Assembly: GCA_000004695.1 (NCBI GenBank)
Contig: CM000152.2
Coordinates: 4,128,001 to 4,192,000, forward strand
From: Dictyostelium discoideum
Taxonomy: Eukaryota
DNA length: 64,000 nucleotides
Reading direction: 5' to 3'
Below, in pieces: positions 3,017 through 59,263 of this stretch (its first letter is position 1; each line of letters starts with the position of its first letter). Below the pieces are notes generated by a model. It worked only from the letters and a program-made list of their open reading frames with translations. It had not been told where the DNA came from and searched no databases. The translations under genes and the position numbers were made by a program.

Positions 3017-3416
3017 ACAACAACAACAACAACACCAAATTCAAATGCAACCAACTCCACCACAACTTCCAATGCCAACTCCACCACAACTTCCAATGCC
3101 AACTCCACCACAACATCAAATGCAACCAACCCCACCATCACCACAACAACCAACTCCACCACAACAACAAGTACCACAATCTCAAATTCCAAGCTCACCA
3201 CAACAACAACAACAACAACAGCAACAACAATATATTATTTCACCACCATCTTATTCACCAACATCGAGCAGTAACCAAATTGGAGGATTTAATCAAATTA
3301 ATAAATCAAATGGGTCAACTAATAGCATAAATTCAAATAACAGCACAATAAATGGTAATAATAACAATAATAGCAATAATAATAACAATAATAACAATAA
3401 TAACAACAATAACAAC

Positions 3417-3447
<31 letters not shown>

Positions 3448-3462
3448 GTAATAACAGTAATA

Positions 3463-3516
<54 letters not shown>

Positions 3517-4265: not shown

Positions 4266-4769
4266 AAATAATAAACAACAATAATAATAATAAAAAAAAA
4301 AAAAAAAGGAATTCTTTTATTTATTTTTTTTTCTTATTTTTTTCTTTTTTTTTTTTTTTATTTTTTTTCTTTTATTTTTTATCCAAAAGAGGTTTTATTT
4401 TCTATTTTTAAATTATGTTGATTGGATGTCGATTATGGTCATTTTGGCTATTTAAATGTTGTTGAATTGTAAAAATTAAAAAAAAAAAAAAGAATTAATA
4501 AATTAATATTTCTATTTATAAAATGATAATAACTTTGGCAAAAGTGTTTTTGTTTTTTTTACTTTTATAGTTTTTTTAGATTTCAAAGAAAAGATATTTT
4601 TTTTTTTTTTTAAAATTTTTTTTTAATTATTTTTTTTTTTGAATTTTTTTTTTTTAATTATTTTTTTTTTTTCATTCTCCTTTTTTCCTTATCCAATTAT
4701 TTTTTATTTTTTTTTTTCACCATTATTTTATTTTTTTTTCATTGTATTTTATTTTTAAAGTTAAAAAAA

Positions 4770-16000: not shown

Positions 16001-17996
16001 AGAAATTTTAACACAATTTGAACAATACTCTGTGATTGCACGTGAATTTAAATCTAGAGTATCAACAATACCATGTTGGATGTTTATTAGATGGATTAGT
16101 CAAATGTTCCCATATTTAGATTTACCACAAGGTCCTTTGATTTTACCAATACTCTTGGAGATTGCAAAATGGTATCCACAAGCAATTTATTTCCCTTTCA
16201 AAATTAGTAGTGAACAATTTGGACCATTGGCAAAGAAAATATCAGCACCATTGGAAAAGGAATTAATTAATCCACTATTGGATACTTTAGTTATTGAATT
16301 CCAACGTTTAACTCATCCAGAACATCGTTTCAAAGATTATATGGAAGAGATGAAATCATTAATTAAAGCAACTCCAAAAGATTTAAATGCAATTGCAAAA
16401 TTAAATAATGAAATCTATGATGACTCTTTTAATCCATCAACAGTTTCAGGTGATTATAATTTAAAATTTGCCAAAGAACATGAAGCTTCCTATTTATCAA
16501 ATTTTGGTAAAGATTCAACTAAATTAGCACGTATGGATCAAAAGAAATTCTTGGAGATTTTTGCTGAAATGTCTGGTAATATGAATAAAAATATGAAACC
16601 AAATTCAACTGCCTCTATGAAATTAAAGGATTTCAGTGGTTGGTTAGCTGATTTCGATCGTTCAAACTATCAAACTTCACATCAAATGGAAATACCTGGA
16701 CAATATGATGGAATTGGTAAACCACAACCAGAAACTCATGTAACCATCTCATCATTCGATACCAATGTTTTGGTGATGGGTTCATTACGTAAACCAAAAC
16801 GTGTAAAGATACATGGTAATGATGAACTAGATTATCCTTTCTTAATTAAAGGTGGTGAAGATCTACGTTTAGATCAAAGAATTCAACAATTGTTTGGAAT
16901 TATGAATGAAATTTTAAAACGTGATACAGCATGCAATAAACGGTCACTCAATGTTACAACCTATCAAGTTGTACCAATGACAAGTAAAGTTGGTATCATT
17001 GAATGGTTAAATGACACTAAACCACTTAGAGAGATATTGGAGGAACAATTAGCACATCAATTAAAAACACCTCGTTCAAATGTTTCAATATCAAAATTGG
17101 AATCAACAAAATATCATAATGATTGGATAAACTCTTTTGCAAAATATTTGAAACCAAATTCACCAGTGGGTCCATTATATCAACAAATGTTTATTCATGC
17201 CACTCGTGATGATTGTGCAAAGAAATTGGAGAAACAACACTCTAAAGTTCCTGAAAATCTTTTACAAAATGGTATTTGGTCACTTTCATCATCTCCAGAG
17301 AGTTATCTTTTCATTAGAAATTCATTTGCACGTTCATTGGCATCATTCTCTGTTTGTTCCTATGTCATTGGAATTGGTGATCGTCATTTGGAGAACTTTT
17401 TAATCTCTCAAAGAGATGGTCGTTTAATTGGTATTGATTTTGGTCATGCTTTTGGTACTGCAACTCAATTCCTTCCAATTCCAGAGTTAATGCCTTTCCG
17501 TTTAACTCGTCAATTCACTAGTTTCCTAAGACCATTGGATTCAGTTGGTTTACTCAATCACAATATGACCTATACTTTAACGGCATTACAAAATCAAAAA
17601 GAAATCCTCTTAACAACTATGGATGTTTTCGTTAAAGAACCACTTTTAGATTGGAGCAAACTTGCTACTCGTTTAGTAAAAGAACAAGGAAAACATCCAA
17701 AAGATACTAAAAATGTTTGGTTCCCAAAACAAAAGATTCAAATTGCAAAGAAGAAATTAGAATTGGTCAATCCTGCCTATATAACTTTAGAAGAGTTATC
17801 AGGCTCGGTTCATTCTGGTCTCCCATATGAAAAAGCTCTCTCTGAAATTATTAAAGGTGATCCAAAACATAATATTAGAGCAAAAGTTAATAAAGTATGT
17901 TCTTCTGTTAAAGAGCAAATAGATTGTTTAATAGATCAATCAACTGATCCAAATATCCTTTCAAGAGCTTGGGTCGGTTGGAATGGTGCTTTATAG
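4807..17996 (+). CDS. dnapkcs: DNA-dependent protein kinase catalytic subunit (DNA-PKcs), a PIKK-family kinase, complete at 4299 codons
   Basis: join(4807..6062,6151..10531,10647..10924,11012..17996). The splice sites are GT|GTAAGT at 6063, acceptor AG at 6149-6150, TTA|GTAAGT at 10532, acceptor taccAG ending at 10646, GA|GTAAGT at 10925 and aatAG ending at 11011. All phases close and the spliced length is 12900 nt, that is 4299 aa plus stop. The C-terminal PI3K/PIKK catalytic motifs are present (GIGDRHLENFLI, DFGHAFG) and a FATC-like tail ends ...AWVGWNGAL. The huge HEAT/FAT-like N-terminal region matches DNA-PKcs architecture. Confidence 0.9.
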
Positions 17997-18806: not shown

Positions 18807-19062
18807 ATGACTTTACTCAGTATGTTTATAGATTAATAGGTTATTAAAATTATTATATTAATTAATATTTCTAATTGATTGTTTTATTTTATTTTTTAAA
18901 ATAGAAAGCTTAAGATCTCTTTTCAGTCCAGCATCCTCAAACACAAACAAAATTAATGAGAGTATTGCTACTCAGAGCGTTTCGAATGCTTCCCAATCCA
19001 AAAACACCTTTGCTGTAATGTCTGGAGAAGAGTATAAGAGATCAGTTGGTTGCTATGGCTAA
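18807..19062 (+). CDS. Small two-exon gene (58 codons) with a 13-nt micro-exon 1. Predicted peptide: MTLLKSLRSLFSPASSNTNKINESIATQSVSNASQSKNTFAVMSGEEYKRSVGCYG. It resembles the HssA/2C/7E-type small-protein family.
   Basis: join(18807..18819,18905..19062). Exon 1 is ATG ACT TTA CTC A, followed by donor GTATGT, an 85-nt AT-rich intron and acceptor aaaatAG. Exon 2 sits in a locally GC-richer patch with an open frame to TAA. The start and architecture are the same as the small genes in the 52-57 kb array (M-[TL]-L-[LFI]-K-S-L). Confidence 0.4.
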
Positions 19063-19504: not shown

Positions 19505-20552
19505 TTAATTATCTTCAGTTTCTTGTTCGAGATCAGTTTCTTTAATGAAAGCATCTAATTCTGCTGCAGTAAAAATATGATAAACAACATTGTCACCTTG
19601 TTTAGTGAAATAAGAGAATTCTAATTTTTCACTGTTGATATTTGAACGATCCATAGTTTTTGTTAAAACTTTGAGAGCCAATTGAAGGGCTTCTTTTAAT
19701 GAAATATCTGGTTTATAATTTGATCTTAAAACTGATTGTGCAACCTAAAAATAAAAAGAAAAATAAATAAAAATAAAAAATAATAATAATAATATATTAA
19801 TATTAATGTTATGACATATATATTAATATTATTTATAATTTTAAAATTCTTATAATTAAGAATAAGAATAATTTTTACATACTTGACTATTTTCACCACC
19901 AATTGAGGTAGCTTTCCAACCAGCAAAATTACCAGAAGGATCAGATTGATATAATTGGAAACCATAATGACGATCCCAACCAGCATAAAGGAATGAGACA
20001 CCAAATGGACGTAAACCACCATATTGAGTGTAACCTTGTTTTGTATCACAAATTTGAGAGACCAATTGTTCGACTGGCATTGGTTCTTGATATTGATAAA
20101 AGAAACGTTGTGATGATAATCTTGCATAATTGATTAAAATGTTGGCATCGGATGTGATACCAGCGACTGCACAAACAACATGTTCATCAATCTTAAACAT
20201 CTTTTCAGAGATTGATGTTGATGAATCTAAAAGTTTTGCTGTGGTCTTTTTCTCTGCTGCTAAAACAATACCATCTTTTGCTAAAATACCAACTGTTGCA
20301 CCTGCATGTCTAATTGCTGTCATTGCATATTCTACTTGATAAACACGACCTTCTGGTGAAAAAATTGTTGTTCTTTGATCATATCTTCTTGCCTATTTTT
20401 TATAAATATATTTAAAAAATTTTTATTTAAATTTTAATTAATAAATTAAAAATTTTTTTTTTTTTTTTTTTTTTTTAATAATTATCATAATAACAATTAA
20501 TATTAATAATAATAATAATAATAGTAATAATAATAATAATAATTCATACCAT
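19505..20552 (-). CDS. psmA4: Proteasome subunit alpha type-4 (PSMA4 / alpha-3), about 250 aa
   Basis: join(complement(19505..19744,19883..20392,20550..20552)). Exon 1 is just ATG, followed by donor GTATGA. Exon 2 begins [36 protein letters not shown]... (compare human [28 protein letters not shown]) and ends ...GGENSQ|GTATGT. Exon 3 reads [32 protein letters not shown]... and ends at TAA. Confidence 0.85.
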
Positions 20553-20917
20553 TTTGTGATTATATATATATTAAGTGAAAAAAAATAAAAGAACAATATA
20601 AAATTAATAAATTGAAAAAAAAAAAAAATGAAAAAAAAAAAAAAAAATTTGATGTGTATGTTCACAAAAAAAAAAAAAAAAAAATTAATTAAAAAAAAAA
20701 AAATTAAAAAAATTAAAATTTTTTTTTTTTTAAAAAAAAATAATAAAAAAAAAATAATAAAAATAAAACAAAAATTAATTTTTGATCAATAAATATTTTT
20801 TTTTTTTTTTTTTTTCTTAAATAATTAGTTTTTAACCATTTTAGGTAATAAAACAATTAATATTGATGATTTTTTTATTTATTTATTTATTTTTTAAAAT
20901 TTTAAATTTAGATTTAT

Positions 20918-21239
20918 TTATTTATTTTTTCTTCCAAAAAGTTTAATTTCTTGTTTTTTCTTATCTAATAAATCATATCTATCTTGAAGTTCTTTTAAAA
21001 GTTTATCTTTTTTCTCTTGTTCAGAATTTGCTGTTTCTGCTGGTTTATTTTTGAAATCAATAGTTGGTGCTTCAATAATTTGTTTAACTTTGTCAACTTT
21101 TTTAAAATATGGAATATTAAATAATTTACAACCTCTTTCTGATTTTAAAAACCAATTAGTAAATGCAAAAATCATTGAATTAACTGCCCAATAAATATTT
21201 AAACTCTAAAAAATAAAAAAAAATAAAGTTAATAATTAT

Positions 21240-21274
<35 letters not shown>

Positions 21275-22246
21275 CATTACAGCAGCAAAATGAATAGTAA
21301 AAACTAAAGGTAAAAAACAAAAAGAAGTCATAATAGTTTTCATCATTGGACTAGTATCATCAGTCATTGAGAAACGAACGGAACCATATTGGAAAATTGA
21401 AGATACTAATGGTAAAATATAATATGGATCGGCCATAGAGAGATTCTTAAACCAAAGGGCACCAGCATCAACGAGTAGATTTGTATCACCACTTAATTGA
21501 CGTAAGAAAATGAATGGATAAATGATGAATGGCATTTGAAGCATGTTTAAACCAAGTGTTTTCATTGGTGAGGTGTCATGTTTTGCAAATGATTTTTTTT
21601 GGAGTTCTGCAATTTTGATTCTACCCTCTTGAGTACCATCATTGAGGTAGGAGTGTTTCTCCATATCCTGTTTAACCAATCTCATTTTAGCAGCATCTCT
21701 TTGATTTCTAATTGCTAATGGTAATGTTAAAACACGAATTGCAATTGCTGTACCAACGAAAATGCTAACCCATGGTAACCCATATTGTACATGAAGTTCA
21801 TTAAGTTTTGCAATTAAGTCGAAATTAAATTGATGTGACCATTCTGTAATTGTGAATGCGTCTGGTCCCATTGTTGGTTTTAAAATATAACTTGGTAAAA
21901 CTTTATTACTAATTGTATCAGTTATAACCTCTGTTGTTGTTGTTGATGCTGATGATGATGATGCTGTTGATGAGAAATCACTAATTGGTGTATTTATATC
22001 AGTATCAACATTATTATTATTATTACTATTATTATTATTATTTTCAGTTGAGAAGAATCTTTTATTAAAATTTTTAATATTATTTTCTAAGAAATTTGAT
22101 TTTGAAAAAGTTGGTAAAATTTTTGATGTTGATGATAATGATTGTGATGATGAAAATAATATTGGTGATACAGTAGTTGTTGAAAAACTTTTTATAAATA
22201 ATTTTTTATTCATTCCATTTATTGGAACTCTTTTTAAAGCATTAAT

Positions 22247-22249
<3 letters not shown>
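20918..22249 (-). CDS. oxaA: Oxa1/YidC-family mitochondrial inner-membrane insertase
   Basis: join(complement(20918..21205,21281..22249)). The N-terminus is presequence-like and Ser/Asn-rich (MINALKRVPINGMNKKLFIKSFSTT...). The conserved Oxa1 core is LPWVSIFVGTAIAIRVLTLPLAIRNQRDAAKMRLVKQDM...YILPLVSSIFQYG. ORFs 21269..22249 and 20918..21175 join through one intron. The exact donor is ambiguous by 6 nt: GCT|GTAATG or ..AT|GTATTA, both in frame. Confidence 0.75.
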
Positions 22250-22282
<33 letters not shown>

Positions 22283-22757
22283 GCAATGAATAATTGATTA
22301 AATGTTGAAAAAAAAAAAAATATAAAAATTAAAAAAAAAAAAAAAAATTTTAAAAAACAAAAAATATAATATAAAAAAAAAAAAAAAAAAATAAAATAAA
22401 AAAAAAAAAAAAGAAAAAAAAAAAAAAAAATTAAAAAAATATCTTTTAAATTTTGATAAAATGAAACAAAACTTATATAAATTATATTGTATTAATTAGT
22501 TATTAAACCCATTTATTTAAGAAGAAAAGATTAAAAAAAAAAAAAAAAAAAAAAGAAAAAAAATGGAAAAATAAAAAAAATAAATAAAAAAATATAGATA
22601 TCTATATTATGGAGAAGAGAAAAAGGGAGTGTTTAAATAAAAAAGAGTTGGGATATTTTTTTTCACGGTTACATTTCAGAAAACATGTTTTTTTGGTAAA
22701 AGGTAATATTTTTCACAAAACCACCTAAAAAATCTTTTTAAAATATCTTTATTCTTT

Positions 22758-22788
<31 letters not shown>

Positions 22789-22852
22789 ATTTAAAAAACA
22801 AAACATTCTAAAAATCTTTTTTTTTCTTTTTTATTTTATTTTTTTTTTTTTT

Positions 22853-22911
<59 letters not shown>

Positions 22912-22915
22912 TTAT
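22853..22915. repeat. (ATTT)n microsatellite of about 16 units
   Basis: tttatttattt... run read directly, immediately 5' of the glycoside hydrolase gene. Confidence 0.95.
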
Positions 22916-22931
22916 TATTAAAATTGAACAA

Positions 22932-24746
22932 ATGAAATCATTTATTTTATTATTATTTTCATTTTGTTTGGTTTTTGGGTCTCCACTTATTGACTCACCT
23001 TCAAAACAAATCATTTGGTCAGATTTGTAAATGTTTAAAATTTATTCCATAATTATTAAAAATTATTATTTTTATTAACTTTTTTTTTTTTTTTTTTTTT
23101 ATTTTTTTTTTTTTATTTAAGTTTTGGAATTAATTTTCAAAATGAATTTTTTAATGTGACAGTTGCTCAAAGTCAAATTTTAGCAATTAAAGAATTAGGA
23201 ATTGAATGGGTTCGTGCAAGTTTTCATTGGGCATATTTAGAAAGTACTGAAGGCAATTTAAGATTTGATTTATATGATCCAGTTATGAATTTAATTAAAA
23301 GTAATGGCTTGAAATCAATTGTCTATCTCGTTGGTACACCAGATTGGTGTAGTAGTTATGATCCTTCAACAGCTGGTAATGTTTCAAAAAGTGATACTTT
23401 CCCACCTTCAAACAATACAAGATTCGCTGAAACAATGATTATTTTAAGTAATCGTTATTCATTTGTTGATGTATGTATTTTATTTTTTATTTTTCAAAAA
23501 TTACAATACTCAGGGGGGTGAATAATTAAATACTAATCTTTTTTTTTTTTTTTATTTTTTATTTTTTTTTTTAAAGTTTTGGGAAGTTTGGAATGAACAA
23601 AATTTAATACCAGCATTTTTTGCACCAGTTTATTCATTTCAAAAATATAATGAAATTTTTCAAGAAACTAAAAGATTATTTTCAAATGATGGTAAAGCAT
23701 CGAAATTGGCAGTTGGTGGATTGGGATATTATGGTTTTTCAAGTACTGGTGAGAATATGATTGCAGATTTAATGACAACTAAAACTTTTGAAGGTGTAAT
23801 AGCAGGTTATCATCCATATACTGATTTACCAGAGGGTGGTAATGGTCAATTGCCCGCGAGTCCATATGCACATTATGCAACAGCAAGATACCTTAATTCT
23901 ATATTATCAAGCCAAGGAAAAGCATATCAAATTTGGTCTACCGAATATGGGTGGTCAAGTAGTGGTGAAGGTAATGTCTCAAAACCAGTTCAAGCCGAAT
24001 TCGGTATAAAACGATTACTAATTGACAGTTTAGTAAATTTTGATAAATCATTCATTTTCACAACTAGTGATCTTGATGGTAACGCATCGTCAGTGAGAGA
24101 TCAAGGATATGGGTTTGTTGATTTAATGTTAAAAAAGAAACCAATTTTCAATTCATTTTTTAATTTATTCACTATAACAGGACCAAAAGTTGATGAAATC
24201 AGTTCAGAAGAAATTAATAGTTATATTACAATATCAAGTTTGGGTGATGATTTTGTTGGTATATTTTATAAAAAATTGTCAACTAATACAACATTGTTTG
24301 TATTTTGGTCACCATCTCAAACTGTAAAATCCTTAACTTTAAATCTTTTCAATGTATCTGCAAATTTATATCAAGTCTCTGATAATACTACTCAATTTTA
24401 TTCAGCAACAATAAATTCAAATACAATTTCATTAACAATAACTGAAAATGTTCAAATTTTTGAATGGCCAATAAAGAAATCTTCATCATCAACATCATCA
24501 TCAACATCTACAACCTTTTCATCATCAACATCTTCATCATCGACAACTACAACCTCTTCATCAACAACTACAACCTCTTCATCGACAACTACAACCTCTT
24601 CATCAACAACTACAACTTCAACCACAACATCAAATTCAACACCAAACCCAGAAAATAGTAATAGTGATGATATGTCATTATCATTTAAATTATATTTAAA
24701 TATTAAATTGATAATCATATCTTTATTATCTTTATTTTTATTTTAG
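22932..24746 (+). CDS. Secreted clan GH-A glycoside hydrolase (GH5/GH39-like) with a Ser/Thr-rich linker and a C-terminal hydrophobic tail (probable GPI anchor)
   Basis: join(22932..23026,23122..23470,23577..24746). The signal peptide is MKSFILLLFSFCLVFGSP. Across the second intron the text reads ...RYSFVD|FWEVWNEQN, the acid/base NE(P/Q) motif of clan GH-A. The nucleophile motif is QIWSTEYGW. An S/T-rich block (SSSTTTTSSSTTTT...) is followed by ...LNIKLIIISLLSLFLF*. Splice sites are TT|GTAAAT, tttaAG, GAT|GTATGT and ttaaAG, with phases closed. Confidence 0.75.
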
Positions 24747-25222
24747 AATAAATTTTTTTTTTTTTTTTTATTTCTTTTTTTTTACTCAAAATTTAGTGGT
24801 TTGTGATTTTATATATTGTTTTTTTTTTTTTTTTTTTTTTTTAATTGGATATTTAAGGTTGGTGATTAATATTGATATTAAAAAAAAATGGAGAAATAAA
24901 AAATTGTACAAAATAATTACATTAATTTTTTTTTATATTCTCATATCATTTTGTGTATTTGTTAGTGATCTATTTATCTATAGAATTAAAAAATTTTTAT
25001 TTATTTTTAATATTTTTTTTCAAGTAAAAATTTGAATGTTTTTTGCAGTGCTCATCAATATTATTTTTTTTTTATTTTTTTTTTATTTTTTTTTTTTTAA
25101 ATTTTTTTTTTTTTAATTTAAATTTTGAGAACATCACAAAAATTTTTTAATTTTTTTTTTTTTTTTTTTTTTTTTTCATTAATTAAATTTATCCACACAC
25201 ACATAATATATATACACCAAAA

Positions 25223-27157
<1,935 letters not shown>

Positions 27158-27821
27158 ATTATTTCTTTGGTCCATCTCCCTCAATTACCAAAGATAAAAA
27201 AAAAAAAAAAAAAATATAAATAAAAATAGAAAAACAAACAGAAAAATAAAAAATAAAAAAAAAATACTATTAAAAAAAAAAAAATAATAATAATAATAAT
27301 AAAAAAAATAAAGATAAAAAAGTGTAATATCAAAATTAAAAATATAATTAACTTGGATTTAGTATTGTTTTTTACTTTCGCTAATTTTTGTTTATATTTA
27401 TTTAATTTATTTTTTTTTTTATTTTTTTTTTTTTTTTTTTTTTCAAATTTTTTCCATTTCACTTTTTTAAATTTTTTTTTTTAATATTAATTTATTTTTT
27501 TTTATGGTCAAACTTGGTATATGACTATAAAATTGCACACTAAACCCTTTTATTTTGTTTATCCCCTTAATTTTTTTAAAAATTTCTTTTTTAATTTTAA
27601 TTTTTCATTTCTTTTTTAAGAATTAATAAAAAAAAAACAAAAAAAAAAAAAAAAAAAAAAAAAAAAACAAAAAAAAAAAAAAAAGAACAAAACAAAACAA
27701 AACATTTTGGTTTTATTTTATTATTATTATTATTTTTTTTTTTTTTCACTCAACATTATTTATTTTTATTATACTATATTATTATACTATTATTGAGTTT
27801 GATCATATATTTGAAATTATA

Positions 27822-28463
27822 ATGTTCCCATCGGATGCCCTTAAAATAATAGATTGCCCTAATGGGTTAAATTGTATGCGAATTATTTGTTGGTTTAAGC
27901 ATACTGAAAATAATATCAATAATAATAATACTTTTGATAATAATTATAATATAATCAATAATAATAATAATAATAATAATTTTAATAATAATTATAATAA
28001 TAATTATAATAATAATAATAATTATAATAATAATTTTAATAATTTTAATAATAATAATTTTAATAATAATAATAATTTTAATAATAATAATAATAATTTT
28101 ATAAACAACAATAATAATTTTAATAATAATAATAATAATTTTATAAATAACAACAACACTAATAATAGCAATAATTTCAATAACAATAGTTTTAATAATT
28201 ATAATAATAATTTTAATAATAATAATAATAATAATAATTTTAATAATAATTATAATAATTATAATAATAATTTTAATAATAGCCCTAATAATCCAAATAA
28301 CACCAACAACAATAACAATCAAAATGCATTGGGCGCAAATTTGAGAATTGGTAGAAATAGAATTAGTGTTGATAAAGATCCAAGATTAAATAAAAATGTT
28401 AGAAATGGTTATGGTTTAGGAACAAATGTAAATAATAGTAGTGGTAGTGGAAATAGCAACATC

Positions 28464-28503
<40 letters not shown>

Positions 28504-28670
28504 AACAAAATAATAGTAATCCCACAAATAAATTTAATGTAGAAATAAAAAAAGGTAGTTCATCAAATGAAGATACTACAACTGCAAATGAATATAACCC
28601 ATCCGATGAAGATCCTATAGATTTGGATCATTTACCTACATTACAAAAGGATACTTCACAACACATTCCG

Positions 28671-28703
<33 letters not shown>

Positions 28704-29231
28704 CAATCACATCATAGTGGTTCACATACACCACTTAAAAAGAGATTTTCAATTGACCAAGCTCCTACCCCTTCTCATCATCCATCAGATGCCAATCCTA
28801 ATAAATTAAAATCAACAACATCAGCACTTTATAAAAAACAAAAAGATAAAAGAGAAAGAGAAGATAAAGAAAAAGAAGAAGCACATGAATCAGAAGAACA
28901 TTCAGAAGAAGATGATCATGCTAAAACAACAACTACAACCACTACAACAACCACAACAGCAACAGCAGCAACAACAACAAAAGGAAAGAAGCAAAAGGTA
29001 GAGATTGAACAAAATCCAAATGAAGCTCAAAAATTGAAAACATCAATTTGGAATCCAACTTTAAAAAATGTATTATCAAAACCACCAAATAAAGAAATGT
29101 TGGATTTAATTACAAAGGATGATGTATTCGATCAAACTAAATGGATTTCTCTAGGTGTTGATACTTCACTCTTACCTTCAATCGTGGTTGAATCAAGAAC
29201 AAAAGTACCAAAATCTGTTAGACAAATGTAA
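27822..29231 (+). CDS. CCCH-type zinc-finger protein with a very long Asn-rich low-complexity region
   Basis: Single 469-codon ORF. The N-terminus MFPSDALKIIDCPNGLNCMRIICWFKH gives C-x5-C-x4-C-x3-H spacing. It is followed by about 150 aa of N/F/Y repeats, an acidic/Ser-rich segment and a conserved-looking tail ...KTSIWNPTLKNVLSKPPNKEMLDLITKDDVFDQTKWISLG.... Confidence 0.55.
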
Positions 29232-29400
29232 ATATCTTAATATATTTTTTTATTTATTTATTTATTTTTTATTTTATTTTATTTCAACTAGTGATTCAAT
29301 TTCTAATATTATCATTTTTTTTTTTTTTTTTTTTTTAAAACACATTTATAGTATATTATTTTATATTTTGGAAAAGTGTTTAGGAATAATAAGTGATAAA

Positions 29401-29663
29401 ATGAAAGCGATTGAAGAATCTATTAAAATTGAAGAAAAAATTTATGCTGATTCTGTTAGCAAAAATGGTAAATAACTATTATTATTATTATTATTATTTT
29501 AATCCTTTAAACATTAATTTTAACTTTTTTTTTTTTTTTTTTTCTCTCTCTTTTGGGCATTACAGTTTATTTAAATTTGGTTTATATAGAGTTACCAAAA
29601 ATTTTAAAACTTTTAAAAGAAAAAGAAGAGGAAGAAGAACAATATCGAGATAATGAAAATTAA
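29401..29663 (+). CDS. Possible small two-exon gene (about 57 aa): MKAIEESIKIEEKIYADSVSKNG|VYLNLVYIELPKILKLLKEKEEEEEQYRDNEN
   Basis: join(29401..29467,29566..29663). Donor G|GTAAAT, acceptor ttacAG. Exon 2 is open to TAA. No homology recognised, so this is speculative. Confidence 0.25.
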
Positions 29664-31818: not shown

Positions 31819-31844
31819 ATGACATTAATTAGTAAGTTTATTTG

Positions 31845-31876
<32 letters not shown>

Positions 31877-32163
31877 TTTTCCTTATTTAAAAAATAAGAA
31901 TTAACAAATTAAATAAAATAAAAAAATTTATTTTAGGATGTATTCAAAGTATTGGAAACGTATCAAATGTTATGAATAAAGCAACAATAAATACTGACAA
32001 TAACATCAATAACAATAACAATATTAATTTCTCAAATAATCAAACAACATACGTAGTTACAAAGGATCAAGGCCAAACCTGTCCAATTTCCACAACTGAT
32101 TGCGGATGTGGCCCATCACCAAAACCAGATCCACAACCAAGTCATCATGTTTATATGATGTAA
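31819..32163 (+). CDS. Small two-exon gene (79 codons) with a 13-nt micro-exon 1. Predicted peptide: MTLIRCIQSIGNVSNVMNKATINTDNN...CPISTTDCGCGPSPKPDPQPSHHVYMM
   Basis: join(31819..31831,31937..32163). Exon 1 is ATG ACA TTA ATT A, with donor GTAAGT, a 105-nt intron and acceptor ttttAG. The architecture and M-T-L-I start match the other micro-exon small genes in this window. Confidence 0.35.
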
Positions 32164-39311: not shown

Positions 39312-42856
<3,545 letters not shown>

Positions 42857-45080: not shown

Positions 45081-46208
45081 ATGAAAAAACACATAAACAA
45101 AAATGAATATAAAAATGAAATCGAAAATGTTGGTAATGACTTTAACCATTTAGATAATTTTGAAAATTATGATGACGATGATGATGAAGATTTTTACTAT
45201 AACCCAAGTAAAGAATTCACAAATATAAAAAATAATAGTAATAATAATAAAGATAATGAAAATTATGATAAAAAAAAAGAAGAAGAAAATAAAGAAAATG
45301 AAATTGAAGAAGAGGAATATAATAATGATGATGAAGAAGTAGATAAACCACTGAAATTAATATGTGAAGATTCAACATGTTCAATTTGTCTTTCTCCATT
45401 TGAAAATCTTACATTTTTAGATATTTGTTTTCGTAAGTAATAACTTTATTTTAATCCTCCTATATATTTAATATAAAATCTTATACTAACCATATTATAC
45501 TATTCTTTTAAAGACCAATTTTGTTTTGTTTGTATATTACAATGGTCAGAATTAAATCAAAGATGTCCACTTTGTAAAAGTGAATATCATTCTTTAATTT
45601 ATCAAGTTAAATCAAATACAGATTATCAAAGATTTATTATTCAAAATAAAAGACAAACTACTACAACTACTACAACTACTACAAATAGTAATACACAAAG
45701 AAGGCCACAACAACAACAGCATCATAATGACTCAAATCATATTTATAATAATAATAATAATAATCAAAGAAGACAACAAGTATATTTACCAAACTTATCA
45801 ATTACAGAACAACATAATGCAAGAAAAAGTATTTATTCAAGAAATGTTAAGGCTATACCAATGGTACCACCATTTAAATTATATTTAGATCCACAATCGA
45901 TAAATTCAAATTTTAAATCATTTAAAACTAAAGTTCAACCATGGATTAAAAGAGAACTTCAATCAATTTTACAAACTTCTGATACTGAAATTTTAGAAGA
46001 TTTAATTTTAGAACTCTTAAAAAAGTATAATATTATTCATGATTCAAAAATTCATGAAACTTTAGAGAAATTCTTATTTCAAAAAACTAATCTCTTTATT
46101 CATGAATTAATTTGTTTTGCAACTTCACCCTATAATATTAAAACTTATGATTCAAAAGTAATTTATGATAAAAGACAATCATTAATAACTGATATGAATA
46201 ATTTAAAC

Positions 46209-46276
<68 letters not shown>

Positions 46277-46634
46277 AAATAATAATGAGAATAATAATAA
46301 AAATGGAAATGAAGAATCAATGGAACCATTGTCACAGATTTTACAACAAACTAATTCGCCAATTAAACATATTCCATCATTCTTATCGAATATATTAACT
46401 GAAGAGATTGAAAAACAAGAATTAATTGAAAAAGAAAGAATAGAAAATGATATTCAATCAGAGAGAAAACGTATAATTCAAATTGATCAAGAGGAAAATA
46501 TTAGAAAAATTTTGAGATTAAAAGAACCAAATTGGAATAATTTTAATGACTTAAATTCTATATCTACTGATCAGCTAGAATATGAAATTTCAAATTTATC
46601 AGGTTATATTTATAATTTAAAAAATTTTAAAAAC

Positions 46635-46707
<73 letters not shown>

Positions 46708-46808
46708 TAAATAATAGTAATAATAATAATAATAATATAAATAATAGTAATAATAATAATATTAAAAAAAATAATAATAAAAATAATAATAATGATGATA
46801 ATAATTAA
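45081..46808 (+). CDS. Topors-like C3HC4 RING-finger E3 ubiquitin/SUMO ligase
   Basis: join(45081..45432,45514..46808). The RING spans the intron: CSICLSPFENLTFLDICF(H)QFCFVCILQWSELNQRCPLCKSEY (compare Topors CPICLDRFDNVSYLDRCLHKFCFRCVQEWSKNKAECPLCKQPF). Donor C|GTAAGT, acceptor ttaaAG, phase 1. The acidic N-terminus and poly-N tail are low complexity. Confidence 0.7.
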
Positions 46809-51326: not shown

Positions 51327-52254
51327 TTATAATAATTTAATGAAATCAAAAGTTTGAACATCATTAGTATTGGTGATAGATTTGAAAGTGATAACAATGT
51401 TACCAGATTCGAATGACCATGACCAATAGCCACTTAAATTAGCATCGTGTTTAATAACGATAGTATGATTTGAAGTTACTTCTTGAACTGCTTCTAAAAT
51501 CATTTCATCTGCACAACGTTTTGAAAGATTTGCTGCTACTTTTTCAACGATACCAGCGAAGATATGACCGAAACTATTCTTTAAATCGTCAGCAACTTTT
51601 GGATAAACAGATTCTAATGATGATTCATCGATTGACCAATCTGATGATGATTTTAATGCTTTTTTAACTGATGATAAATTATCTTTCATTTTTTGTTCGT
51701 TTGTTTTAATATTTAAACGAGTCATTAATGAATAAACACCTTGAGTTTGAATAATTGTTTCTAATTTAAATGTGTTAACATCATTTGTGTTACATATCTT
51801 TGGACGGAATAAAATTTGACAATCACCATTTTCAAATTGATATTTCCAATATGATGATAACTTTTCATCAGCACAAACAAAAACAAATTTTTTATTTGGA
51901 ACTGCAGCTAAGAATGCTTCTTTGATTAAAGGATCTGCACCTACTTTAACCATGTTTTTAGCAAGATTACCAACAACATCTTTATAAAATATACTACCAC
52001 AACTATTTGTAACCCAAGAATCATTACATTTTGCAATAATATCTTCGAAATCAAATTCGATGGCAAATGGTTCCCCTAATGATTTTTCAATTAAGGCTAG
52101 ATTTGTTTTTAAAGATTCTTCATTATCTTTTAATGATTTTCTATAACAAATTGAATTTTTATATTAGTATTTATTTATATTAGGTATTGGTTTTTAATTA
52201 AACTTATTTTTTTAATTTAAATAATAAATACCTTGAAGTTAAAGCGAGAGGCAT
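51327..52254 (-). CDS. Copy 1 of a tandemly repeated gene encoding a 278-aa protein with two internal homologous repeats (unknown family)
   Basis: join(complement(51327..52140,52232..52254)). Exon 1 is ATGCCTCTCGCTTTAACTTCAAG (MPLALTS), with donor GTATTT, a 91-nt intron and acceptor ttatAG. Exon 2 reads KSLKDNEESLKTNLALIEKSLGEPFAIEFDFEDIIAKC..MVKVGADPLIKEAFLAAVP...FDFIKLL*. The internal repeat pairs SSYWKYQFENGDCQILFRPKICNTNDVNTFKLETI with SGYWSWSFESGNIVITFKSITNTNDVQTFDFIKL. Confidence 0.7.
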
Positions 52255-52653: not shown

Positions 52654-52940
52654 TTAAAGGTCAACATGAGCATATACTGCTAATATTGGATGGATAATAA
52701 CTAATGCATCAAGGGTTAAAAGAGCAGCATTATTATTAGATTGAGAAGTTCCAACAAAATGAGTTCCTGAAATTTGATTCTTTTGAGATGCACTTTGGAT
52801 ATTAGCAATTGAATTTAATGATTCTATTAGGTTTTTTAATTATTATTATTTTTTTTTTAAAACAATGTTAATTCTTAATTTTTTTTTTTTTTTTTTTTAT
52901 TTTTTTTTTTTTTTTTTTTTTATAACTTACTGAATAACAT
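52654..52940 (-). CDS. Small gene A (59 codons, 10-nt micro-exon 1): MLFKSLNSIANIQSASQKNQISGTHFVGTSQSNNNAALLTLDALVIIHPILAVYAHVDL
   Basis: join(complement(52654..52823,52931..52940)). Exon 1 is ATG TTA TTC A with donor GTAAGT, and the acceptor is cctaatAG. It belongs to an HssA/2C/7E-like small-protein family and forms an inverted pair with small gene B. Confidence 0.55.
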
Positions 52941-53556
52941 TTTAGATTTTTAACAATTTAATACAAGTGTTTGATTATTTTTAATGATTAAAAAAAATAT
53001 TTTTTATTCATTTTATAGTTTTTTTTTTTTAATAATATTATTGTATTTTAAAATTATTATTAAAAGATTTCATATAATTTAATAATGAAAAAATAACCAA
53101 GTGATCAATTTTGATCAGCTTTTGAATCAATTATCTATTCTAATCAGTTAGAATTTATTTATTAAAAATCACAAAATCTGTTATTTAAATTTTGTGGTAT
53201 ATTAATTAATAAAAAAAAAAAAAAGAAAAAAGAAAATTGTAAAAATAAAATTAAACACATTTTAATAAAACCTTTAATGTATTTAAATTCTATTTTTACA
53301 AAAAAATTTAACATCGTTTGTATTAGTGATTGAGATGGCAATTTTTTAAATTGACCATAATGGACATTTAAGAAAAATGTGAATTAAAACAATATTATTT
53401 TTGTTATTGCCAATTAATATTTTTTTTTTTTTTTTTTTTATCTATTAACACAAAAAAATAACAGATTTTGGGGTTTTTTTTTAAAATTTTAAAGTTTTAT
53501 TAATAAAATGATTGGAGATTAAAGTAACTTTTAAAAAATAATAAGTTTATTTATTT

Positions 53557-53588
<32 letters not shown>

Positions 53589-53681
53589 AATAATAATATC
53601 AATAATAAAAAAAACTATAAAATAAAAATTTTATTTTTTTAATTTAATCATTAAAATTAATTAAAATATTAAAAATTTAAA

Positions 53682-53955
53682 ATGTTATTCAGTAAGTTTA
53701 ATAAAAATTATAAAATTTGTAATATTTTTAATATTGAAAACAATTTAATATTAATTATATTAAAAAAATTATAAAAATTATTTAGAATCATTAAACTCAA
53801 TTGCCAATATCCAGAATTCATCTCAAAAGAATCAAATTTCAGGAACTCAATTAATTGGAACTTCTCAATCAAATAATAATGCTGCTCTTTTAACCCTTGA
53901 TGCATTAGTTATTATTCATCCAATATTAGCAGTATATGCTCATGTTGACCTTTAA
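53682..53955 (+). CDS. Small gene B (59 codons): MLFKSLNSIANIQNSSQKNQISGTQLIGTSQSNNNAALLTLDALVIIHPILAVYAHVDL
   Basis: join(53682..53691,53786..53955). Same structure as small gene A, inverted relative to it. The 0.73-kb spacer 52941..53681 lies between their 5' ends. Confidence 0.55.
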
Positions 53956-54116: not shown

Positions 54117-55047
54117 TTATAACAATTTAATGAAATCAAAAGTTTGAACGTCATTGGTATTGGTAATAGATTTGAAAGTGATAACAATGTTACCAGATTC
54201 GAATGACCATGACCAATAGCCACTTAAGTTAGCATCGTGTTTAATAACGATTGTATGATTTGAAGTTACTTCTTGAACTGCTTCTAAAATCATTTCGTCT
54301 GCACAACGTTTTGAAAGATTGGCTGCTACTTTTTCAACGATACCAGCAAAGATATGACCGAAACTATTCTTTAAATCGTCTGCGACTTTTGGATAAACAG
54401 ATTCTAATGATGATTCATCGATTGACCAATCTGATGATGATTTTAATGCTTTTTTAACTGATGATAAATTATCTTTCATTTTTTGTTCGTTTGTTTTAAT
54501 ATTTAAACGAGTCATTAATGAATAAACACCTTGAGTTTGAATAATTGTTTCTAATTTAAATGTGTTAACATCATTCGTGTTACATATCTTTGGACGGAAC
54601 AAAATTTGACAATCACCATTTTCAAATTGATATTTCCAATATGATGATAACTTTTCATCAGCACAAACAAAAACAAATTTTTTATTTGGAACTGCAGCTA
54701 AGAATGCTTCTTTGATTAATGGATCTGCACCTACTTTAACCATGTTTTTAGCAAGATTACCAACAACATCTTTATAAAATATACTACCACAACTATTTGT
54801 AACCCAAGAATCATTACATTTTGCAATAATATCTTCGAAATCAAATTCAATTGTAAATGTCTCACCTAATGATTTTTCAATTAAGGCTAAATTTGTTTTT
54901 AAAGATTCTTCATTATCTTTTAATGATTTTCTATAATAAATTATATATTTAAATTAGTATTTATTTATATTAAGGCATTGGTTTTTTAATACCTTATTTA
55001 GTTTTAAAACTAAATAATAAATACCTTGAAGTTAAAGCGAGAGGCAT
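54117..55047 (-). CDS. Copy 2 of the tandemly repeated 278-aa gene
   Basis: join(complement(54117..54930,55025..55047)). The protein is identical to copy 1 across the 208-aa ORF (ORF track). Confidence 0.7.
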
Positions 55048-55475: not shown

Positions 55476-55732
55476 TTAAAGGTCAACATGAGCATATACT
55501 GCTAATATTGGATGAATAATAACTAATGCATCAAGGGTTAAAAGAGCAGCATTATTATTTGATTGAGAAGTTCCAATTAATTGAGTTCCTAAAATTTGAT
55601 TCTTTTGAGATACACTTTGGACATTTGCAATTGAGTTTAATGATTCTATTAAGTTTTTTATAATTTTTTAAAGGTTAGTTTTAAATTGTTTTCAATATTA
55701 ATAATTTTATTATTTAACTTACTGAATAACAT
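55476..55732 (-). CDS. Small gene C (59 codons): MLFKSLNSIANVQSVSQKNQILGTQLIGTSQS...
   Basis: join(complement(55476..55645,55723..55732)). A paralogue of small genes A and B. It carries the TQLIG variant found in copy B. Confidence 0.5.
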
Positions 55733-56499
55733 TTTAGATTTTTAATATTTTTATACAATTTATTAATTTTAATAATTAAATTTAATAAAAAAATTTTATT
55801 TATAGTTTTTTTAATTGATATTATTATTTTTTTGTTTTTTTTTATTTTTTTTTTTTTTTTTTTAACAAATAAACAACCTTATTACTTTTTAAAAGTCGCT
55901 CTAATCTCCAATCATTTTATTAATAAAACTTTAAAATTTTAAAAAAATAAAAAAAAACCCAAAATCTGTTATTTTTTTTTGTGTTAATAGATAAATAAAA
56001 AAAAAAAATAAAAAAAATAAAAAAATAATAATAATTGGCAATAACAAAAATAATATTGTTTTTATTCACATTTTTCTAAAATGTCCATTATGGTCAATTT
56101 AAACAATTGCCATCTCAAACAATAATAAAAATGATGTTCAATTTTTTTCTATAAATACATTAAAGGTGTTATAAAAATGTGTTTAATTTTGTTGTTACCA
56201 TTATTTTATCTTTTTTTTTTTTTTTTTTTTTTTTTTGAATTAATTACCACAAAATTTATATAACGTGTTATGTGGTTTTTAATAAAATTTTTTTACTGAT
56301 TAATAGATAATTGATTCAGATAGCTGATCAAAATTGATCACTTGGTAAATTTTTCATTAAAAAAAATTATATGAAATTTTTTTAAAATAAATTTAAAATA
56401 CAATAATATTATTAAAAAAAAAACTATAAATGAATAAAAAAAAATTTTTTAATCATTAAAAATAATCAAACACTTGTATTAAATTTTTAAAAATCTAAA

Positions 56500-56768
56500 A
56501 TGTTATTCAGTAAGTTATAAAAAAAAAAAAAAAAAAAAAAAAAACTACAAAAAATTAACATTGTTTTAAAAAAAAAAATAATATAAAAAACCTAATAGAA
56601 TCATTAAATTCAATTGCTAATATCCAAAGTGCATCTCAAAAGAATCAAATTTCAGGAACTCAATTAGTTGGAACTTCTCAATCAAATAATAATGCTGCTC
56701 TTTTAACCCTTGATGCATTAGTTATTATTCATCCAATATTAGCAGTATATGCTCATGTTGACCTTTAA
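56500..56768 (+). CDS. Small gene D (59 codons): MLFKSLNSIANIQSASQKNQISGTQLVGTSQSNNNAALLTLDALVIIHPILAVYAHVDL
   Basis: join(56500..56509,56599..56768). It carries the QSAS variant found in copy A. Confidence 0.55.
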
Positions 56769-56949: not shown

Positions 56950-57867
56950 TTATAACAATTTTATGAAATCAAAAGTTTGAACGTCATTAGTATTGGTGAT
57001 AGATTTGAAGGTGATAACAATGTTACCAGATTCGAATGACCATGACCAATGACCATTTAAGTTAGCATCGTGTTTAATAACGATTGTATGTTTTGAAGTT
57101 ACTTCTTGAACTGCTTCTAAAATCATTTCGTCTGCACAACGTTTTGAAAGATTGGCTGCTACTTTTTCAACGATACCAGCAAAGATATGACCGAAACTAT
57201 TCTTTAAATCGTCTGCGACTTTTGGATAAACAGACTCTAATGATGATTCATCGATTGACCAATCTGATGATGATTTTAATGCTTTTTTAACTGATGATAA
57301 ATTATCTTTCATTTTTTGTTCGTTTGTTTTAATATTTAAACGAGTCATTAATGAATAAACACCTTGAGTTGGAATAATTGTTTCTAATTTAAATGTGTTA
57401 ACATCATTTGTGTTACAAATCTTTGGACGGAATAAAATTTGACAATCACCATTTTCAAATTGATATTTCCAATATGATGATAACTTTTCATCAGCACAAA
57501 CAAAAACAAATTTTTTATTTGGAACTGCAGCTAAGAATGCTTCTTTGATTAAAGGATCTGCACCTACTTTAACCATGTTTTTAGCAAGATTACCAACAAC
57601 ATCTTTATAAAATATACTACCACAACTATTTGTAACCCAAGAATCATTACATTTTGCAATAATATCTTCGAAATCAAATTCAATTGCAAATGGCTCACCT
57701 AATGATTTTTCAATTAAGGCTAAATTTGTTTTTAAAGATTCTTCATTATCTTTTAATGATTTTCTATAATAAATTATAATATAAGTATAAATTAATATAT
57801 ATTTTTATTAATCTTTTTAATAACATTTAATTATAATAAAATACCTTGAAGTTAAAGAGAGTGGCAT
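56950..57867 (-). CDS. Copy 3 of the tandemly repeated 278-aa gene (variants: MPLSLT.., IIPTQ, TSKHT, NLNGHW)
   Basis: join(complement(56950..57763,57845..57867)). Confidence 0.7.
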
Positions 57868-58362: not shown

Positions 58363-59263
58363 ATGCCTCTCGCTTTAACATCAAGGTATATATTTTTTTT
58401 TTTTTTTTTTTTTTTTTAAATTGTTAATATTAATAAATTTTAATTATAGAAAATCATTAAAAGATAATGAAGAATCTTTAAAAACAAATTTAGCCTTAAT
58501 TGAAAAATCGTTAGGTGAGCCATTTGCAATTGAATTTGATTTCGAAGATATTATTGCAAAATGTAATGATTCTTGGGTTACAAATAGTTGTGGTAGTATA
58601 TTTTATAAAGATGTTGTTGGTAATCTTGCTAAAAACATGGTTAAAGTAGGTGCAGATCCATTAATCAAAGAAGCATTCTTAGCTGCAGTTCCAAATAAAA
58701 AATTTGTTTTTGTTTGTGCTGATGAAAAGTTATCATCATATTGGAAATATCAATTTGAAAATGGTGATTGTCAAATTTTGTTCCGTCCAAAGATATGTAA
58801 CACGAATGATGTTAACACATTTAAATTAGAAACAATTATTCCAACTCAAGGTGTTTATTCATTAATGACTCGTTTAAATATTAAAACAAACGAACAAAAA
58901 ATGAAAGATAATTTATCATCAGTTAAAAAAGCATTAAAATCATCATCAGATTGGTCAATCGATGAATCATCATTAGAATCTGTTTATCCAAAAGTTGCTG
59001 ACGATTTAAAGAATAGTTTCGGTCATATCTTCGCTGGTATCGTTGAAAAAGTAGCAGCAAATCTTTCAAAACGTTGTGCAGATGAAATGATTTTAGAAGC
59101 AGTTCAAGAAGTAACTTCAAATCATACTATCGTTATTAAACACGATGCTAATTTAAGTGGCTATTGGTCATGGTCATTCGAATCTGGTAACATTGTTATC
59201 ACCTTTAAATCAATCACCAATACAAATGATGTTCAAACCTTTGATTTCATTAAATTGTTATAA
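58363..59263 (+). CDS. Copy 4 of the repeated 278-aa gene, in inverted orientation
   Basis: join(58363..58385,58450..59263). Exon 1 is MPLALTS, with donor AG|GTATAT and acceptor attatAG. Exon 2 matches ORF 58421..59263 (IIPTQ variant). Confidence 0.75.

Follow-up and report, generated by a model that had tools for sequence, protein, structure and literature searches.

The DNA analysed here is a 64,000-nt stretch of Dictyostelium discoideum AX4 chromosome 3, referred to below as the window. It is extremely AT-rich (15–32% GC when measured in 2-kb windows), and no tRNAs were found within its 64 kb. The small genes in question are four copies within an array, a single gene at 18807 and a candidate gene at 31819. 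The interval that was first flagged, 52654–52940, is exactly array copy 1 on the minus strand. The array as a whole is composed of four copies of a gene encoding a 278-aa protein, interleaved with two head-to-head pairs of the small genes. The features are listed below with their positions in the window.

18807..19062, plus strand: DDB_G0281169, 56 aa; exon 1 18807-18819 (13 nt), intron 18820-18904 (85 nt), exon 2 18905-19062; exact match to EAL66881.1/Q54UB9
31819..32163, plus strand: candidate 79-aa gene from the scripted layout model; exon 1 31819-31831 (13 nt), intron 31832-31936 (105 nt), exon 2 31937-32163
51327..52254, minus strand: DDB_G0281187, 278 aa, copy 1 of the 278-aa gene, with a 23-nt first exon
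52654..52940, minus strand: DDB_G0281189, array copy 1, 59 aa; exon 1 52931-52940, intron 52824-52930 (107 nt), exon 2 52654-52823 including the stop codon; scripted model and exact match to EAL66891.1/Q54UA3
52941..53681, no strand: 741-bp spacer between head-to-head copies 1 and 2, holding both TATA boxes
53682..53955, plus strand: DDB_G0281191, array copy 2, 59 aa; exon 1 53682-53691, intron 53692-53785 (94 nt), exon 2 53786-53955; scripted model and exact protein match
54117..55047, minus strand: DDB_G0281193, copy 2 of the 278-aa gene
55476..55732, minus strand: DDB_G0281195, array copy 3, 59 aa; exon 1 55723-55732, intron 55646-55722 (77 nt), exon 2 55476-55645; scripted model and exact protein match
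55733..56499, no strand: 767-bp spacer between head-to-head copies 3 and 4
56500..56768, plus strand: DDB_G0281197, array copy 4, 59 aa; exon 1 56500-56509, intron 56510-56598 (89 nt), exon 2 56599-56768; scripted model and exact protein match
56950..57867, minus strand: DDB_G0281199, copy 3 of the 278-aa gene
58363..59263, plus strand: DDB_G0281201, copy 4 of the 278-aa gene, inverted

Gene models and their annotation

Each of the six small-gene models is composed of an exon 1 of 10 or 13 nt, a GTAAGT or GTATGT donor, an intron of 77–107 nt and one exon 2. In all four array genes exon 1 is ATGTTATTCA (10 nt, encoding MLF plus 1 nt) followed by GTAAGT, and exon 2 is 170 nt in each copy, giving a product of 59 aa. 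The first exon and donor of the 18807 gene are ATGACTTTACTCA and GTATGT, and those of the 31819 candidate are ATGACATTAATTA and GTAAGT. This arrangement had been proposed in a sequence-only reading of the window, and the scripted re-derivation recovered all six models at the positions given there, with the short first exon, the donor and the single second exon seen at every locus. The intron range in that reading, 85–105 nt, was narrower than the one measured.

The layout scan looked for an ATG with one to four further codons and 1 nt, the donor GTA[AT]GT, an intron of 60–250 nt and an open exon 2. It returned the six loci and one unrelated match at 41606. In 200 block-wise Markov resamplings of the window, the layout occurred at a mean of 0.27 loci compared with 7 in the real window, and the layout combined with the N-terminal motif, which was defined post hoc, occurred at six real loci and in none of the 200 resamplings. 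Only three independent observations lie behind the six loci, since the four array copies are duplicates of one another. The match at 41606 (MENN...) was rejected; its 'exon 2' resembles a protein-kinase stretch from within a larger gene.

Base composition and signals agree across the three groups formed by the array, the 18807 gene and the 31819 candidate. The coding sequences have 29–38% GC, the introns 6–11% and the flanks 9–18%, with TATAAA located 52–101 nt upstream of the ATG and AATAAA downstream of the stop. Within the spacer at 52941..53681 the TATAAA elements lie 66–75 nt upstream of the ATGs. For the 31819 candidate the values are 32% GC in the CDS and 8% in the intron, with TATAAA 101 nt upstream.

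An exact-sequence look-up in GenBank and UniProt showed that five of the six spliced translations are deposited residue for residue, all as 'hypothetical' or 'uncharacterized': DDB_G0281189, 191, 195 and 197 for the array and DDB_G0281169 for the 18807 gene. The genes had been described as invisible to ORF finders and as absent from the six-frame ORF list. Invisibility holds for the mechanical list and for one recent annotation, but the genes have been in GenBank and dictyBase since the AX4 genome was annotated. Absence from the list is accurate for the array exon-2 frames but not for exon 2 of 31819, which is listed as a 63-aa ORF with an internal ATG (31972..32163). At both loci checked in a recent D. 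discoideum assembly, the gene calls leave out the small genes, and the array-type copies in the 'Dictyostelium cf. discoideum' assembly are likewise missing. For the 31819 model and two alternative models, no deposited protein was equal to any of them by exact look-up, and a similarity search of the 31819 model against 5.8 billion clusters gave no match at E<=10.

Conservation of the reading frames

The coding sequences of the four AX4 array genes are 94–98% identical without an indel, the introns are 64–89% identical with 11–32 gap columns and the flanks are 65–88% identical with many gaps. Twelve codons vary among these copies (five synonymous, seven nonsynonymous), and all replacements fall within codons 12–27. 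The 'Dictyostelium cf. discoideum' locus contains six further copies in three head-to-head pairs, all of 59 codons. The splice sites are intact in five of these six, and the remaining copy has an acceptor changed from AG to TG. Intron length across the ten copies (four AX4 and six cf. discoideum) ranges from 76 to 107 nt. Ten indel-free 59-codon frames next to introns of variable length are not what conservation of the DNA alone would produce. The earlier reading held that its models would fall if the exon-2 frames were conserved merely as DNA; these frames are conserved at the amino-acid level.

The dN/dS value is approximately 0.40 across the ten array copies, within as well as between lineages, a figure that rests on few substitutions. 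By a rough parsimony estimate there were about 23 nonsynonymous and about 18 synonymous events (binomial P = 0.002 against neutrality). Three conservative replacements, L41V, A52G and V57I, are fixed between the two lineages, and residues 42–59 exhibit conservative changes only. Judged by these comparisons of sequence, the array reading frame is under purifying selection. In the 3' half of the array genes the AX4 copies show just 2 synonymous changes over 32 codons, and this high synonymous conservation could reflect gene conversion or an RNA-level constraint.

DDB_G0281169 has an annotated, syntenic 56-aa orthologue in D. firmibasis, with the gene for DNA-PKcs upstream in both species and those for a proteasome alpha subunit and an Oxa1-like protein downstream. 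Exon 1 is identical at 13 of 13 positions, and the intron changes from 85 to 76 nt with 69% identity. The CDS has no indel and differs at 15 synonymous and 7 nonsynonymous positions by Nei-Gojobori counting, which gives a dN/dS of 0.10 (P = 5e-6). The D. firmibasis locus, followed over 10 kb, stops shortly before the place where a counterpart of the 31819 candidate would be expected.

Relationship to the sigN/hssA class

When the four array peptides were combined into a profile and compared with 1.84 billion representatives, the only relatives identified were from D. discoideum: DDB_G0281615 (58 aa), DDB_G0283509 (57 aa) and UPI00004E4412, an old UniParc model. DDB_G0281615 was matched with an E-value of 1e-10 and 50% identity, and DDB_G0283509 with an E-value of 4e-9 over positions 1–55 and 53% identity. 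Paralogues at 43–53% identity keep the length of the array peptides and the motifs M-L-F-K-S, S-I and N-N-N. The 10-nt first exon ATGTTATT(C/T)A followed by GTAAGT is found in the four AX4 copies, the six cf. discoideum copies and DDB_G0281615. DDB_G0283509 sits inside a chromosome-4 run, G0283501-519, that is tabulated as 'Small proteins (57-59 aa) (prestalk specific)' (PMC3640940), and the published qPCR primers for G0283503 encode KSLQSITS and VAAVA, both of which are DDB_G0283509 motifs. By this full-length similarity to a member of the run, the array genes belong to a 59-aa 'MLFKSL...' subfamily, with the 57–59-aa chromosome-4 prestalk proteins as nearest kin.

The chromosome-4 proteins resemble the array products in size (57–59 aa), in their MLFKSL(Q/N)SI N-terminus, in the SQSNNN motif and in the hydrophobic C-terminus, and the two sets are alike in being induced at 12–16 h, prestalk-enriched and de-repressed in mef2A-. 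The array differs from the chromosome-4 cluster in its location on chromosome 3, in being interleaved with the 278-aa gene and in its much lower wild-type expression at 16 h. In PMC3640940 the array is filed under 'hssA-related', apart from the 57–59-aa chromosome-4 group. The 18807 and 31819 peptides fall outside the MLFKSL family, with hhalign probabilities of 22% (array/18807) and 7% (array/31819) that concern the N-terminus only, and 1% as the third value across the three groups. By their sequences, these two genes appear to be separate singletons that are more hssA-like and have the canonical 13-nt first exon.

The sigN/hssA family comprises 96 genes encoding proteins of <120 aa, with a 13-nt first-exon ORF in 89 of the 96 and a 10-nt one in three (PMC2257962), and its genes are laid out as duplicated divergent pairs (Vicente et al. 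2008, PMC2257962). The tiny first exon is also given as a family hallmark in PMC6198379. The genes described here resemble this family in having two exons with a 13-nt, or rarely 10-nt, first-exon ORF (the sigN intron is 66–128 nt), a similar N-terminal motif, divergent pairs and, by published data on the array genes and DDB_G0281169, developmental, prestalk-enriched expression. Exon 1 is 13 nt in the 18807 and 31819 genes and 10 nt in the array, and the size of the products (56–79 aa) lies below the 120-aa limit. The array differs in encoding 59 aa where most of the family encode 75–100 aa, and in the absence of a Ser/Gly/Cys-rich C-terminal half. The array peptides contain no Cys and two Gly, the 18807 peptide one Cys and three Gly, and the 31819 peptide four Cys and four Gly; a Ser/Gly/Cys-rich sequence with C-terminal Cys is thus lacking in the array and partially present in 31819. 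The published list of 96 sigN-like genes, which uses DDB0 identifiers and was compared by gene dimensions, contains no entry with the dimensions of the array genes (10 + 169 nt, 59 aa) or of 31819. The entry sigN183 of this 2008 list (chromosome 3, 56 aa, intron 85) probably corresponds to DDB_G0281169, although its exon split is given as 10/160, unlike the 13-nt exon 1 of that gene.

The relation to the Pfam family PF05710 ('Coiled') was judged by hmmscan scores against its gathering score of 21.4 bits. This was the HMMER check that the sequence-only reading had proposed, and it did not place the genes in the family: the array peptides gave no match at E<=10, the 31819 peptide gave no match, and the 18807 peptide scored 14.1 bits. 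DDB_G0283509 (14.5 bits) and UPI00004E4412 (17.2 bits) also scored below the gathering value, and these sub-threshold matches cover only approximately profile positions 1–37, at the N-terminus. PF05710 is the top recurrent sub-threshold match in five of the 16 members and relatives, with a best E-value of 0.0026, and no other Pfam family recurs meaningfully among the 16 sequences.

According to one reading, all six genes form a single homologous family of true, divergent HssA/2C/7E members that descend from one ancestral phase-1 micro-exon gene. The intron is in phase 1 and lies inside an aligned Lys/Arg codon in all three groups, the 13-nt or 10-nt first exons fit the family hallmark, and hhalign, comparing the array family with the 18807 pair, yields P = 9e-4 across 39 columns, which include SQSNNN against SQSKNT. 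The recurrent PF05710 matches, the filing of the array as hssA-related in PMC3640940 and the probable identity of sigN183 with DDB_G0281169 also argue for it. Against it stand the Pfam result, with no member at the gathering score and four array peptides without any match, the low hhalign probabilities, the absence of any tblastn cross-match between the array, 18807 and 31819, the missing Gly/Cys-rich C-terminal half of the array peptides and the absence of the array dimensions from the 96 listed genes. The 57–59-aa group is, moreover, stated in PMC3640940 to be without significant similarity to hssA. A single strict family is a contender of appreciable weight, yet the balance tips against it. 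The earlier claim of one family of six stands for the shared N-terminal motif and intron position, while the sequences otherwise fall into three groups. Its suggestion of HssA/2C/7E agrees with the documented tiny-exon hallmark and with the published filing of the array, but not with strict membership. A broader kinship is favoured, in which these genes probably work like, and descend from, the hssA/sigN class.

SRCP1 (DDB_G0293362), a serine-rich chaperone of 88 aa by which polyglutamine aggregation is suppressed, falls like the array products into the broad class of small, developmentally regulated Dictyostelium proteins (PMC8554618). It appears in the same hssA-related table as the array genes and differs from them in its opposite Mef2A response (26 vs 279 reads; PMC3640940).

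Expression, array units and possible function

In Table 3 of Galardi-Castilla et al. 2013 (PMC3640940), the four array genes appear in the group headed 'hssA-related genes (prestalk-specific)'. Poly(A)+ RNA-seq reads at 16 h in mef2A- and wild type, respectively, are 539 and 4 for DDB_G0281189, 79 and 0 for DDB_G0281191, 106 and 3 for DDB_G0281195, and 111 and 2 for DDB_G0281197 (PMC3640940). The array genes are transcribed, polyadenylated and strongly de-repressed upon loss of Mef2A. In wild type they are barely expressed at 16 h, with 0–4 reads (PMC3640940). The array paralogue DDB_G0283509 peaks at 1393 at 16 h, with 4184 in prestalk and 123 in prespore cells. DDB_G0281169 has values of 0 in vegetative cells and 1175 at 8 h, with 1508 in prestalk and 160 in prespore cells (PMC6198379 supplement 5). 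These two relatives with expression data are induced in multicellular development and are prestalk-enriched. Public transcript assemblies searched for the exact 59-aa and 56-aa products had nothing on record for the AX4 proteins, and the supplements of the life-cycle proteome and 'transcriptional milestones' papers contained nothing on these genes.

The small-gene models very probably represent genuine, translated two-exon genes of a developmentally induced, prestalk-enriched class of small proteins, broadly that of hssA/2C/7E-sigN. The 59-aa product would have two conserved parts, an N-terminal module and a hydrophobic C-terminal segment of approximately 22 residues, joined by a polar Ser/Asn/Gln linker; the C-terminal segment may anchor the protein in a membrane or drive self-association. 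The protein would be made in prestalk cells at the finger/slug stage and would act redundantly with many paralogues. Taken as a whole, this mechanism of a C-terminally anchored or self-associating, redundant prestalk protein is tentative. The Kyte-Doolittle maximum over 19 residues is 1.99 for the array, 2.27 for DDB_G0283509, 0.61 for DDB_G0281615 and 1.02 for UPI00004E4412. Not all relatives have the hydrophobic tail, and Asp, His and Pro occur within that of the array. A neighbouring chromosome-4 gene, DDB_G0283505, is labelled 'transmembrane protein' (PMC6198379 supplement 5). AlphaFold modelling of the 59-aa family gave two nominal helices at a confidence (pLDDT 52) that is insufficient for a fold search. 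No phenotype resulted from knocking out 13 sigN genes (PMC2257962) or six other small-protein genes (PMC8554618), which suggests redundancy in the wider class.

The array arose through repeated duplication of a unit composed of a head-to-head small-gene pair and one 278-aa gene. AX4 contains two such units and the cf. discoideum lineage three. The spacers at 52941..53681 and 55733-56499 align over their full length by blastn in reverse orientation only (84.6%), and the spacer of AX4 unit 1 is inverted relative to that of AX4 unit 2 and all three cf. discoideum units, as expected from recombination between inverted coding repeats. The 278-aa protein is an internal duplication of a domain of approximately 135 aa (37% identity, E = 1e-20). 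It matches no Pfam family and has no PDB relative by sequence search, and AlphaFold prediction from the single sequence gave an unusable model (pLDDT 34).

The co-amplification of the small and 278-aa genes, in AX4 and again in the three cf. discoideum units, is what a functional two-gene cassette might show, with the 59-aa protein serving as partner, anchor or antagonist of the 278-aa protein. The linkage is seen again approximately 536 kb away, with DDB_G0281615 flanked by DDB_G0281613 and DDB_G0281617. Such linkage may be mere segmental duplication, however, and the chromosome-4 paralogues, which have consecutive locus tags, are for that reason inferred to form a small-gene run without 278-aa genes. 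Co-expression data for the 278-aa genes were not found, and their product matches no fold or family. A functional cassette is considered unlikely. An equally speculative extension holds that 31819 is a real, never-annotated hssA-like gene and that the MLFKSL proteins are membrane-anchored partners of the 278-aa protein, forming a lineage-specific, copy-number-variable cassette that is switched on in prestalk cells without Mef2A-dependent repression.

It has also been suggested that hssA may have an RNA role, as a frame-shifted copy still suppressed the STATa phenotype (PMC6198379). Were the genes described here to act mainly as RNAs, the short ORF would be incidental, and the unusually conserved synonymous sites in the array 3' half and the only moderately low dN/dS of 0.4 would be accommodated. 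That the exact 59-codon frame is kept without indels in ten copies whose introns vary from 76 to 107 nt, that paralogues at roughly half identity retain length and motifs, and that the 18807 gene has a dN/dS of 0.10 make a chiefly RNA-based function very unlikely. The possibility that the models are annotation artefacts or decaying pseudogenes, as might be read from their absence from the recent gene calls, the one lost acceptor AG and the very low wild-type read counts, is largely refuted by frames and splice sites conserved over ten copies and across species, by the coding-type GC step with promoter and poly(A) signals, and by the hundreds of poly(A)+ reads in mef2A-, and retains a negligible probability.

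These small-protein genes are not new as such: annotation of the array genes dates from the AX4 genome, an RNA-seq table of 2013 includes them, and the class, nearly 100 Dictyostelium genes with a 13-nt first exon encoding small prestalk proteins, has been described since 2008. What is new is the unannotated candidate at 31819, the omission of these genes on re-annotation and the arrangement of small genes and the 278-aa gene as a cassette. The importance for biology at large is small, and the locus makes the question of function for a redundant class no easier. Current pipelines continue to miss genes with this layout, and scans that are aware of micro-exons remain useful. For the family itself, the grouping of the array genes with the 57–59-aa prestalk proteins, and not with canonical HssA, tidies the published classification.

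Genes of 278 aa and inverted spacers in the array

The array of four 59-aa micro-exon genes (DDB_G0281189/191/195/197), which is arranged as two head-to-head pairs, is accompanied in the window by four near-identical copies of a gene for a 278-aa protein, each with a 23-nt first exon:

51327-52254, minus strand, DDB_G0281187, 278-aa protein, 23-nt first exon
54117-55047, minus strand, DDB_G0281193, 278-aa protein, 23-nt first exon
56950-57867, minus strand, DDB_G0281199, 278-aa protein, 23-nt first exon
58363-59263, plus strand, DDB_G0281201, 278-aa protein, 23-nt first exon

The protein consists of a domain of ~135 aa that is duplicated internally (37% identity, E = 1e-20). No family was identified for it in Pfam and no relative in PDB, and the AlphaFold model built from the single sequence was unusable (pLDDT 34).

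The spacers of the array (52941-53681 and 55733-56499) can be aligned in reverse orientation only, with 84.6% identity over 741 bp. The Dictyostelium cf. discoideum lineage (GCA_054859235.1) contains three pair units versus two in AX4, and the spacers of all three are oriented as in AX4 unit 2. Because the two AX4 units are opposed and all three cf. discoideum units match unit 2, one spacer has been flipped, presumably through recombination between the inverted coding repeats. One of the six cf. discoideum small-gene copies (locus L003, about 4469-4741) exhibits a change of the intron acceptor from TTTAG to TTTTG with exon 2 still open; the copy has either become a pseudogene recently or been misread in sequencing.

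A second cassette and the gene calls of a recent assembly

Chromosome 3 of a recent D. discoideum assembly (GCA_054883475.1) carries another cassette of this type at locus L005, about 536 kb from the array:

L005 6001-8956, second small-gene/278-aa-gene cassette

Here, two tandem 278-aa genes flank DDB_G0281615 (58 aa), whose exon 1, ATGTTATTTA, lies at 7233 and is followed by a GTAAGT donor; the stop codon is at 7511-7513. The gene calls of this assembly include the 278-aa genes, both here and at the array locus (L002), but across the whole of L002 and L005 they lack all five small micro-exon genes. The DNA of these small genes is still there and identical.

Dispersed loci

Upstream of the dispersed 56-aa gene at 18807 (DDB_G0281169) is a long open frame:

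11085-17996, plus strand, open frame of 2303 aa

Synteny with D. firmibasis identifies this frame as the 3' portion of the gene for DNA-PKcs. Next come the proteasome alpha, Oxa1-like, RPN6 and Pet191-like genes (19700-29500), in an order common to both species.

The other dispersed locus is a candidate model:

31819-32163, hssA-like candidate of 79 aa, 13-nt exon 1, four Cys

The candidate peptide features a proline-rich C-terminal stretch, PSPKPDPQPS, and no matching protein was found for it in the collections searched. The mechanical ORF list contains only a 63-aa ORF here, starting at an internal ATG (31972..32163). Long Asn-rich, low-complexity, coding-like tracts occur at about 3300-3500, 27900-28500, 39400-40900 and 46200-46800, and TBLASTN with the candidate peptide gave hundreds of spurious matches between its poly-Asn stretch and the Asn-rich tracts of the window. 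The seventh match of the micro-exon layout scan, at 41606 on the plus strand (MENN...), was rejected as a small-peptide gene; its downstream frame, HICLVFKRYGLSLYEFLKKNRYRPLPLSQIQNISKQLL, resembles a protein-kinase segment from the interior of a larger gene.

Classification of the array genes

Table 3 of PMC3640940 places DDB_G0281189-197 under 'hssA-related', and the same paper describes a group of 57-59-aa proteins without significant similarity to hssA. The array genes exhibit 53% identity to DDB_G0283509, a chromosome-4 member of that group. Contrary to the published filing, this similarity indicates that the array genes group with the 57-59-aa proteins.
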